From a phage, in the sequence record PX645697.1: a stretch of DNA of 64,000 nt; one strand, written 5' to 3'. This document shows, one piece after another, positions 49,599-50,945 of this stretch. Position numbers and translations under genes: made by a program. Position 1 is the stretch's first letter. Every line of letters starts with the position of its first letter. The notes beneath the pieces were generated by a model. The model was not told where the DNA came from. It was given only the letters and a program-made list of their open reading frames with translations, and did no database searches.

Positions 49599-50945
49599 TT
49601 AGTTATTTGTTTCTACGTCAAAAGAGATTCCACGACCCGCCTCATCGGCAAACCGAACTGTACGGGTTTGAGGTTCTAATATTTCAGGGTTGTCAGCAAC
49701 AAAGCGATCAGCGAGATTCTGGTTGACGGTCTCAGCAAGCTCCTCATGAGAAGGAACATCAAGACTACCTACCACATCTTGGGAAGAAGCTTCATCAGTC
49801 CAGATAACCCGAGCAGGAACAGCAAAACCCTGACCAGAGAGCTGACGTGCACTAACGTTGAAGCCATTTGGACGACCACGAGAAGGACTAGACATCCATC
49901 TCTCCATAGAATCACTTGTGATACCAAGAGCTTCTTCAAAAGATGTTCTACGAGTAGGGCTTTCTCTTCGTGACTCTTGTGCTCGACGCATTGCAGGGGC
50001 TACAAACACCCCTTCAATTGCATTGTGTCGGTTAGGTTCCTCTTCTCGACCAAGCAGATCACCACCCGTGTTAGTCGTTAAATTTGTCAACCCCTCAGAC
50101 CAATACGCATGAATCTGACCAGAACCGTGAAGACTAGACATAATCTGAATCTCTTCATAAGGGATTCCAAAGAATAGACTCATGTCTCGGTTAACACAAT
50201 ACTGAGCACTTGTTGTATCTTCAATAAGAGAAACCTGACCTAATCCATTAACCAGATGGCTAACTGGCTGAGGTGTAGGAAGGTATCGAGTTTGGGCCAT
50301 ATATTGATATGCAACAGATGGAGCTGAGAATCTTAACACTTGTGAATTAGGCCACTTTTTGTGAACGTATCTGATTTCACGACTAGAAACAACCACAGGA
50401 CAAGGAGAGGTCATAGCTAAATATCCATGAGGGGTCATGAATAAGTTATCAAGAGTCATCGCACCACGGCACATCATAGGAAAATTATCCAACACCTCCT
50501 CAATAGAAGTAGGATAGTTAAACATGAATTGAATGCGGGTTCCATTCCACTGAAATTCAATAATATCAGTGAATGTTAATTGAGAGTTCCCAGCATAGGA
50601 TTCGTTTGTAGATTCAGCAAGAAGAGATGAATATTCAATATCTTGTGACTCAAGCCACTCCTTAACGTTGCTTTCAACCTCTCTTCCAAGATCTTGCCAC
50701 TGATCATGGCGGACGAAAGTGTTTTGGGTTCTTGGTGTTTGTCCTCTGACAATAAAGATATCAATGTCATGTGGAGCTATATTGTTAAGGACAGCATCAC
50801 GAATAGCCCCACCAGTAATGATGGGACAGATACCGTCTGGAATCAAGTTGTTGTTAATCAACTGTTCAATGAAGTGACGACCAACAGTGATATCAGGTTG
50901 TTGAGCAACCTTATCTTCAATTTGGTTAATCGGGATAACAATCAT
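49599..50945 (-). CDS. Pol-beta-superfamily nucleotidyltransferase with CCA-adding-enzyme-like head motif
   Basis: IITGGAIRDAVLNNIAPHDIDIFIV (GGxxRD ... DxD); about 449 aa; start refined to ATG just after exonuclease stop. Confidence 0.55.
   Translation of the reverse strand: MIVIPINQIEDKVAQQPDITVGRHFIEQLINNNLIPDGICPIITGGAIRDAVLNNIAPHDIDIFIVRGQTPRTQNTFVRHDQWQDLGREVESNVKEWLESQDIEYSSLLAESTNESYAGNSQLTFTDIIEFQWNGTRIQFMFNYPTSIEEVLDNFPMMCRGAMTLDNLFMTPHGYLAMTSPCPVVVSSREIRYVHKKWPNSQVLRFSAPSVAYQYMAQTRYLPTPQPVSHLVNGLGQVSLIEDTTSAQYCVNRDMSLFFGIPYEEIQIMSSLHGSGQIHAYWSEGLTNLTTNTGGDLLGREEEPNRHNAIEGVFVAPAMRRAQESRRESPTRRTSFEEALGITSDSMERWMSSPSRGRPNGFNVSARQLSGQGFAVPARVIWTDEASSQDVVGSLDVPSHEELAETVNQNLADRFVADNPEILEPQTRTVRFADEAGRGISFDVETNN

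Follow-up and report, generated by a model that had tools for sequence, protein, structure and literature searches.

The locus examined here raises the question of what a nucleotidyltransferase (NTase) bearing the signature of a CCA-adding enzyme does among the replication genes of a phage. The gene lies in a stretch of 64,000 nucleotides (sequence record PX645697.1; hereafter, the window) from a phiEco32-like Escherichia coli podophage (Kuravirus, Gordonclarkvirinae). It is already annotated in databases, and the observation of the gene is not new there. The original prediction had assigned its product a CCA-adding-enzyme-like head domain and had named the repair of tRNA 3′ ends after host nuclease attack among the candidate roles. 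The gene is located as follows.

49599..50945, minus strand: NTase gene, encoding 448 aa plus a stop codon; orthologue of SU10 gp74, PHROG 12715

The open reading frame starts with an ATG at position 50945, 1 nt from the stop codon of the upstream exonuclease gene. A GTG start at 51002 would extend the frame into that upstream gene; all homologs begin with MIVIP and none uses the GTG, and thus the longer frame is not in use. The protein matched the PHROG 12715 profile over its full length (E = 2.1e-247; aa 1–448 to profile positions 1–457). Purifying selection acts on the gene: dN/dS values were 0.03–0.10 in aa 1–215 and 0.18–0.60 in the tail (aa 301–448), which evolves faster than the core but is still constrained. 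Furthermore, the SU10 orthologue has been detected by mass spectrometry (PMC4281155). These results, together with the invariant motif residues and the occurrence in 98 phage records described below, indicate that the NTase gene is not a chance ORF. A promoter scan remained at the chance level with no signal specific to the NTase gene, terminator-like sites were ca. 2 sd above the shuffle mean with none specific to this gene, and no RNA families were found in the window using Rfam.

Conservation across the whole family spans aa 1 to ca. 215, and a [WY][ST]xG[LR] motif at aa 281–286 is common to the longer members. The core and its catalytic elements are the following.

50076..50945, minus strand: conserved catalytic core (aa 1–290), a Pol-beta-type head plus a short helical neck, delimited by the model, the alignments and the search match ranges
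50754..50819, minus strand: motif A (aa 43–64, ITGGAIRDAVLNNIAPHDIDIF), comprising the GG turn, an RD of class II type and the metal ligands D60 and D62 of DxD
50508..50573, minus strand: beta-hairpin (aa 125–146, TDIIEFQWNGTRIQFMFNYPTS), the second strand of which carries the invariant Q139; from predicted secondary structure and conservation

Residues 42–66 read IITGGAIRDAVLNNIAPHDIDIFIV, and the GGAIRD...DIDI motif reported in the original prediction is present there, with its key residues invariant across the family: G45, G46, R49, D50, D60 and D62 were the same in all of the 26–30 members aligned, at identities down to 21%–35%. Both the hG[GS] turn (G45, G46) and the [DE]x[DE] metal-binding strand (D60-x-D62) of the Pol-beta superfamily are there, and GGAIRD...DID matches the class II motif A, GGxVRDxxLG...DxD. 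This strict invariance of GG, RD and DxD at such low identity suggests that metal and nucleotide binding has probably been retained. Judging from the sequence, the NTase centre is conserved and probably active. The DxD strand and the hairpin are separated by aa 80–124, a long helix (aa 80–100) and a disordered loop that the class II head does not have. In class II enzymes, the strand corresponding to the second strand of the hairpin bears a third acidic residue such as the Glu in 'EVTTFR'. In our model, the invariant Q139 would sit by topology where this third catalytic carboxylate (Glu) is expected, a mapping that follows, as do those of motifs B and D below, the order of secondary-structure elements and not a residue-level superposition. 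On the partner strand, position 127 is D or E in every member and could be an alternative third metal ligand. As a separate observation, AYWSEGL (aa 280–286; window 49602–50102, minus strand, covers aa 282–448) carries the [WY][ST]xG[LR] motif, which is kept in most of the longer members.

The origin of this core was apparent from its predicted structure. A first AlphaFold model based on a shallow alignment of 19 sequences was unusable (pLDDT 42.6); a second model, of aa 1–270 and based on an alignment of 30 diverse sequences, reached a pLDDT of 89.7 and a pTM of 0.85, with disorder at aa 112–117 only, and contains the minimal alpha/beta fold of NTases. Its best structural matches were CCA-adding and A-adding enzymes, with the same ranking in Foldseek, and 142–168 of the 270 residues were superposed, covering the head and some of the neck. 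These matches support a CCA-adding-enzyme-like head domain. A phmmer search of the NTase against PDB sequences returned nothing meaningful. The NTase is best placed in the Pol-beta superfamily as a derivative of the class II (bacterial CCA-adding/poly(A) polymerase, PAP) lineage that kept the head and a short neck, and it represents a small variant group among class II-type NTases.

On the other hand, as read from its sequence, the NTase appears to lack the elements that define a CCA-adding enzyme, namely motif B, motif D and the tRNA-binding body and tail. The segments at the presumed positions of the two motifs are listed below.

50463..50483, minus strand: FPMMCRG (aa 155–161), presumed position of CCA motif B, without RRD; P156 is nearly invariant
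50349..50381, minus strand: REIRYVHKKWP (aa 189–199), signature [DE]xxYxx[KR]K; Y193 and K197 are invariant in the family alignment

Motif B (RRDFTxNA), which serves in ribose and triphosphate recognition, was not found; the family segment has the form (D/x)(N/x)FPxMC, and a conserved Arg-Arg-Asp is absent from all members. Motif D (EDxxR), the amino-acid template for C and A, was not found in the family alignment either, and the sole conserved motif at a compatible spacing, [DE]190-x-x-Y193-x-x-[KR]-K197, is a candidate replacement for it. The domains with which CCA-adding enzymes grip the tRNA elbow, body and tail, are absent, the shortest members being only 274–300 aa long; class II CCA/PAP enzymes have ca. 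400 conserved residues, whereas the NTase family has about 215–290. The match to Pfam PF01743 (PolyA_pol) scored 19.1 bits (E = 0.0017), short of the gathering cut-off of 23. In a comparison of the family profile with all PDB sequences, 27 residues (motif A) aligned to CCA enzymes (E = 0.005), hhalign against 80 Enterobacterales Cca sequences aligned 23 columns, again motif A, at a probability of 32%, and against the single E. coli Cca and PcnB sequences, the family profile aligned motif A alone. Global and low-MAC hhalign runs were also tried to extend the CCA alignment, and the resulting extensions were meaningless.

The long divergent C-terminal region that had been noticed from the sequence is real: conservation ends at ca. 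aa 215–290, and the rest is lineage-specific and indel-rich.

49602..50075, minus strand: lineage-specific C-terminal extension (aa 291–448), in Kuravirus-type members only

No family or structure matches to aa 291–448 were found, and the extension is of low confidence or disordered in AlphaFold. It has an Arg-rich middle (aa 300–380; pI 11.3) and an acidic end (aa 381–448; pI 4.05), and its terminus, ...RTVRFADEAGRGISFD.ETNN, is conserved, with indels between strains elsewhere. It might act as a flexible docking or substrate-recruiting tail. Several divergent members of the family end in Trp motifs (…RSEW, …IRWQW, …GGWTF and …TWDW), which may be docking motifs.

The distribution of the family is restricted to phages related to the one studied here and to metagenomic relatives. 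A tblastn search found the NTase in 98 phage records: ca. 70 Escherichia/Shigella phage records with proteins 80%–91% identical, the best being CHD5UKE1 and SU10, and 28 further records with 32%–36% identity across the first ca. 260 residues. A word-indexed search returned Kuravirus-type proteins only, plus one relative at 34%, and when 1.84 billion representative proteins were searched exhaustively with the profile, 32 clusters were retrieved, all aligned from profile residue 1, among which there was no canonical CCA-adding enzyme. The cultured phages with the family are Escherichia and Shigella Gordonclarkvirinae only. In the window, the gene lies in a conserved block of four genes, with the following neighbours.

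51498..53288, minus strand: primase/helicase, T7 gp4-like; first gene of the block
50947..51504, minus strand: 3′–5′ exonuclease subunit of a family A DNA polymerase (185 aa); upstream neighbour of the NTase
49056..49589, minus strand: dCTP deaminase (177 aa); downstream neighbour, closing the block

The order from primase/helicase through exonuclease subunit and NTase to dCTP deaminase is the same in KBNP1711 (Nieuwekanaalvirus) and Bas87 and is kept in every metagenomic contig retrieved, with members only 23%–30% identical; the NTase start adjoins the exonuclease stop in all members examined. Given this fixed order across distant members, the NTase is an old core component of a replication and nucleotide-metabolism block, the synteny of which has likewise been noted by the BASEL authors (PMC11990801). 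The NTase is likely co-translated with the replication genes.

Other features of the surrounding region were also observed. The family A DNA polymerase is split, with the exonuclease subunit (50947–51504, minus strand) ca. 10 kb from the 614-aa polymerase (38712–40556, minus strand), and Pfam DNA_pol_A matches only the C-terminal ca. 250 residues of the latter. A Dps/ferritin-like protein (46803–47402, minus strand; Pfam Ferritin, E = 3e-7), the relatives of which are annotated 'DNA binding protein', is kept in the same module of distant metagenomic relatives. Shortly downstream of the dCTP deaminase, four tandem small paralogs (47761–48852, minus strand; 69, 71, 70 and 82 aa; 30%–43% identical) share W5, (T/S)RxEAR..KK and a C-terminal (V/I)x(Y/H)Y, and a small protein at a neighbouring position in a related contig matched Pfam Phage_T4_Y13I. 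A phiEco32-typical cluster of peptide/amide-bond enzymes (53508–62885, minus strand) includes three proteins without a Pfam match and the following genes.

53508–53927, minus strand: GGACT/AIG2-like gamma-glutamyl cyclotransferase
54434–55627, minus strand: 397-aa protein, RimK-like ATP-grasp by annotation in relatives
56071–57762, minus strand: glutamine amidotransferase
58181–59284, minus strand: Amidoligase_2
59908–60714, minus strand: 'phiEco32-like COOH.NH2 ligase'

The conserved NTase centre, the trimmed scaffold, the loss of the CCA elements, the co-location with replication genes and the phage-only relatives together point to nucleotidyl transfer to something other than a CCA end. We consider it plausible, although somewhat short of probable, that the protein is a trimmed class II NTase that transfers nucleotides to a non-CCA acceptor during replication and has a counter-defence or host-takeover role. 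In such a mechanism, D60 and D62 would hold an NTP or dNTP with Mg2+, and one or a few nucleotides would be moved onto an acceptor other than the tRNA CCA end. Gln139 and the altered base-pocket motif [DE]xxYxxKK could change the chemistry or the specificity of the reaction. The acidic core would probably reach its substrate via a partner or its own tail, and the enzyme would work while the phage replicates. The role would most likely be a phage-specific counter-defence or host-takeover transfer tied to replication and not tRNA maturation or repair, given that the closest relatives, the PHROG 1614 NTases and, weakly, Gad2, are phage-only. Anti-defence genes are usually accessory, however, and since the NTase gene is core and its synteny fixed, a housekeeping role in replication or nucleotide metabolism fits equally well.

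Another candidate activity is template-independent 3′-end tailing of RNA or DNA, in the manner of a poly(A) polymerase or terminal transferase, which would act during replication on transcripts of host or phage, on primers or on genome ends. We regard this as unlikely. All family members are acidic overall (core pI 4.5–5.9, with one exception at ca. 7), no member has a basic or otherwise recognisable nucleic-acid-binding domain, and conservation of the Arg-rich tail does not extend beyond Kuravirus. Charge alone is not a reason to exclude RNA substrates, because E. coli Cca is acidic in its head and neck as well. A Gln at the presumed third-carboxylate site would, however, be unusual for a processive polymerase.

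A further role has been proposed in connection with restriction resistance. Gordonclarkvirinae resist the restriction–modification (RM) systems tested without known modification or inhibitor genes, and the BASEL authors pointed to the NTase locus, the NTase and dCTP deaminase being proposed as a pathway of covalent DNA modification or of unusual nucleotides behind this resistance (PMC11990801). The invariant synteny with the dCTP deaminase and the replication genes is in line with this proposal. The window contains 37 EcoRV and 8 EcoKI sites, and therefore the resistance is not due to absent sites. Nevertheless, CCWGG (4 observed vs. 86 expected), PstI (0 vs. 17), BamHI (1 vs. 10) and GATC (134 vs. 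265) are strongly avoided, which is the pattern of restriction-exposed and not of hypermodified DNA. GGCC was likewise depleted (52 vs. 106), and EcoRV (37 vs. 16) and SspI (48 vs. 25) sites were enriched. The thymidylate synthase (ThyX-type in relatives) and dNMP kinase fit an ordinary dTTP supply and not dU-DNA, and we are not aware of any CCA/PAP-type NTase that takes part in DNA base modification. Such a modification pathway thus appears improbable, and it would be a long shot that the NTase, with the dCTP deaminase and the replisome, is the determinant of restriction resistance in Gordonclarkvirinae through nucleotidylylated DNA or DNA ends or a non-canonical nucleotide; if true, a CCA-enzyme scaffold would here serve a novel type of genome protection. 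Independently of the NTase, the site avoidance resembles the effect of selection on DNA that is unmodified, a surprising pattern in phages reported to resist RM systems broadly.

A role as tRNA nucleotidyltransferase, in which the protein would restore or add CCA at the 3′ end of tRNAs from the host or the phage (for instance once a nuclease has attacked them), is highly unlikely in our judgement. It would agree with the best structural matches to CCA-adding and A-adding enzymes and with a motif A (GGxxRD...DxD) typical of class II. Neither ARAGORN nor Rfam found a tRNA gene in the window, as the original prediction had stated; related phages carry a single tRNA-Arg(UCU) gene (PMC9965538), at ca. 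66656–66731 of the SU10 record (L001 36657–36732, minus strand), and its equivalent lies beyond the end of the window. This gene, which could be counted in favour of tRNA repair, encodes the 3′ end ...GCGC-A-CCA, that is, the CCA is already encoded in the phage tRNA gene. In addition, the RRD of motif B, the EDxxR of motif D and the body and tail are missing (short members of 274–300 aa), the PolyA_pol match is sub-threshold, and merely 23–27 residues align to CCA enzymes. CCA is likewise encoded in the tRNA genes of E. coli, which moreover possesses a Cca enzyme itself; this also counts against a need for repair by the phage. Defences that target tRNA are common and include OLD-family TOPRIM nucleases related to GajA of Gabija (PMC12445682). 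These nucleases cut the anticodon arms of tRNA (PMC12445682; bioRxiv 10.64898/2026.07.10.737580), so that a tRNA connection in Gabija-type conflicts is conceivable; cuts of the OLD and PARIS types in the anticodon arm (PMC12445682) are, however, not mendable by a 3′-end NTase. Hence, of the original interpretation, the CCA-enzyme-like head stands, whereas the role in tRNA 3′-end repair is unsupported, and the main value of the present check is to keep the NTase from being classified as an enzyme of tRNA CCA addition or repair.

Least likely of all, and given very little weight here, is an inactive structural or regulatory NTase-fold subunit of the phage replisome, for example a partner of the exonuclease subunit, which would suit the adjoining exonuclease gene in all members examined, the presumed loss of the third carboxylate to Gln139 and a long disordered tail whose conserved short motifs resemble docking tails, but not the invariant GG, RD and DxD at 21%–35% identity, which suggest that nucleotide and metal binding has been kept.

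Identification of the acceptor would reveal what a core gene of the replication module does in a common group of E. coli phages used in therapy. An explanation for the widespread small 'poly(A)-polymerase head' NTases of phiKMV-type podophages would probably follow, perhaps along with the enzymatic mechanism by which Gad2 counters Gabija, and the limits of trimming and re-purposing the class II CCA/PAP scaffold would become visible.

Comparison with known systems places the NTase closest to phage proteins. A stand-alone bacterial protein described as 'CCA-adding enzyme head domain', NP_344798.1 of Streptococcus pneumoniae (PDB 2la3), was a much weaker structural match than the full-length CCA/PAP enzymes and differs in being bacterial, whereas the closest relatives of the NTase are phage-only. 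Among the latter, PHROG 1614 ('nucleotidyltransferase') was matched at E = 6e-8 over aa 36–155, and a Foldseek search of BFVD returned many 170–220-aa 'poly A polymerase head' proteins of phiKMV-like and other podophages. Gp16 of Pseudomonas phage LKD16 (199 aa) is a clear PHROG 1614 member and is encoded between helicase and ligase genes, a position suggesting that podophages recurrently encode small CCA-like NTases next to their replicative helicase. The PHROG 1614 proteins (LKD16 gp16 and Emajogi gp22) resemble the NTase in being phage-only, head-centred, acidic and encoded beside primase/helicase genes in replication modules, whereas LKD16 gp16 has an Asp at the Gln139 site, an FDYTxN segment closer to CCA motif B and no long C-terminal tail, and the NTase family forms a separate group, PHROG 12715. 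The sole functional report on LKD16 gp16 is its toxicity on overexpression (bioRxiv 10.64898/2026.09.15.751885).

Many family members also carry a precomputed match, flagged weak, to Pfam PF26128 (Gad2). Gad2 is an anti-Gabija protein of SPbeta-like phages and a predicted NTase (bioRxiv 10.1101/2023.05.01.538930). Neither mechanistic studies of Gad2 nor functional studies of the NTase gene came up in a literature search, and PADLOC and NCBIfam gave no match for four family members. The experimentally verified Brevibacillus Gad2, taken from the supplement of the same report (bioRxiv 10.1101/2023.05.01.538930), also matched PHROG 1614 (E = 2.3e-6). An hhalign comparison of 22 Gad2 homologs with the family gave probabilities of 53%–66% (E = 5e-5 to 1.4e-4), confident only near motif A; in the same test, Gad2 and the CCA enzymes did not detect each other. 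The longer Gad2 alignment pairs IQxM with vQLIH and FPxMC with FDFTvCMG. Q139 aligns with the invariant Q of Gad2 in the hhalign of the family alignments, and in a Gad2–LKD16 alignment, that Q pairs, at low confidence, with the D of LKD16 gp16. These sequence comparisons make the link between the NTase and Gad2 suggestive but weak. The two share an N-terminal NTase head, an invariant Gln in the equivalent strand, F-x-x-x-C and the PHROG 1614 match. They differ in that AGGxITS in Gad2 replaces GGAxRD, and the C-terminal domain of Gad2 (aa ca. 200–400, roughly 200 aa) has no counterpart in the NTase, the hhalign and HMM matches stopping at the N-terminal head. Moreover, the anti-defence locus of temperate Bacillus phages that encodes Gad2 is accessory, whereas the NTase belongs to the core replication block.
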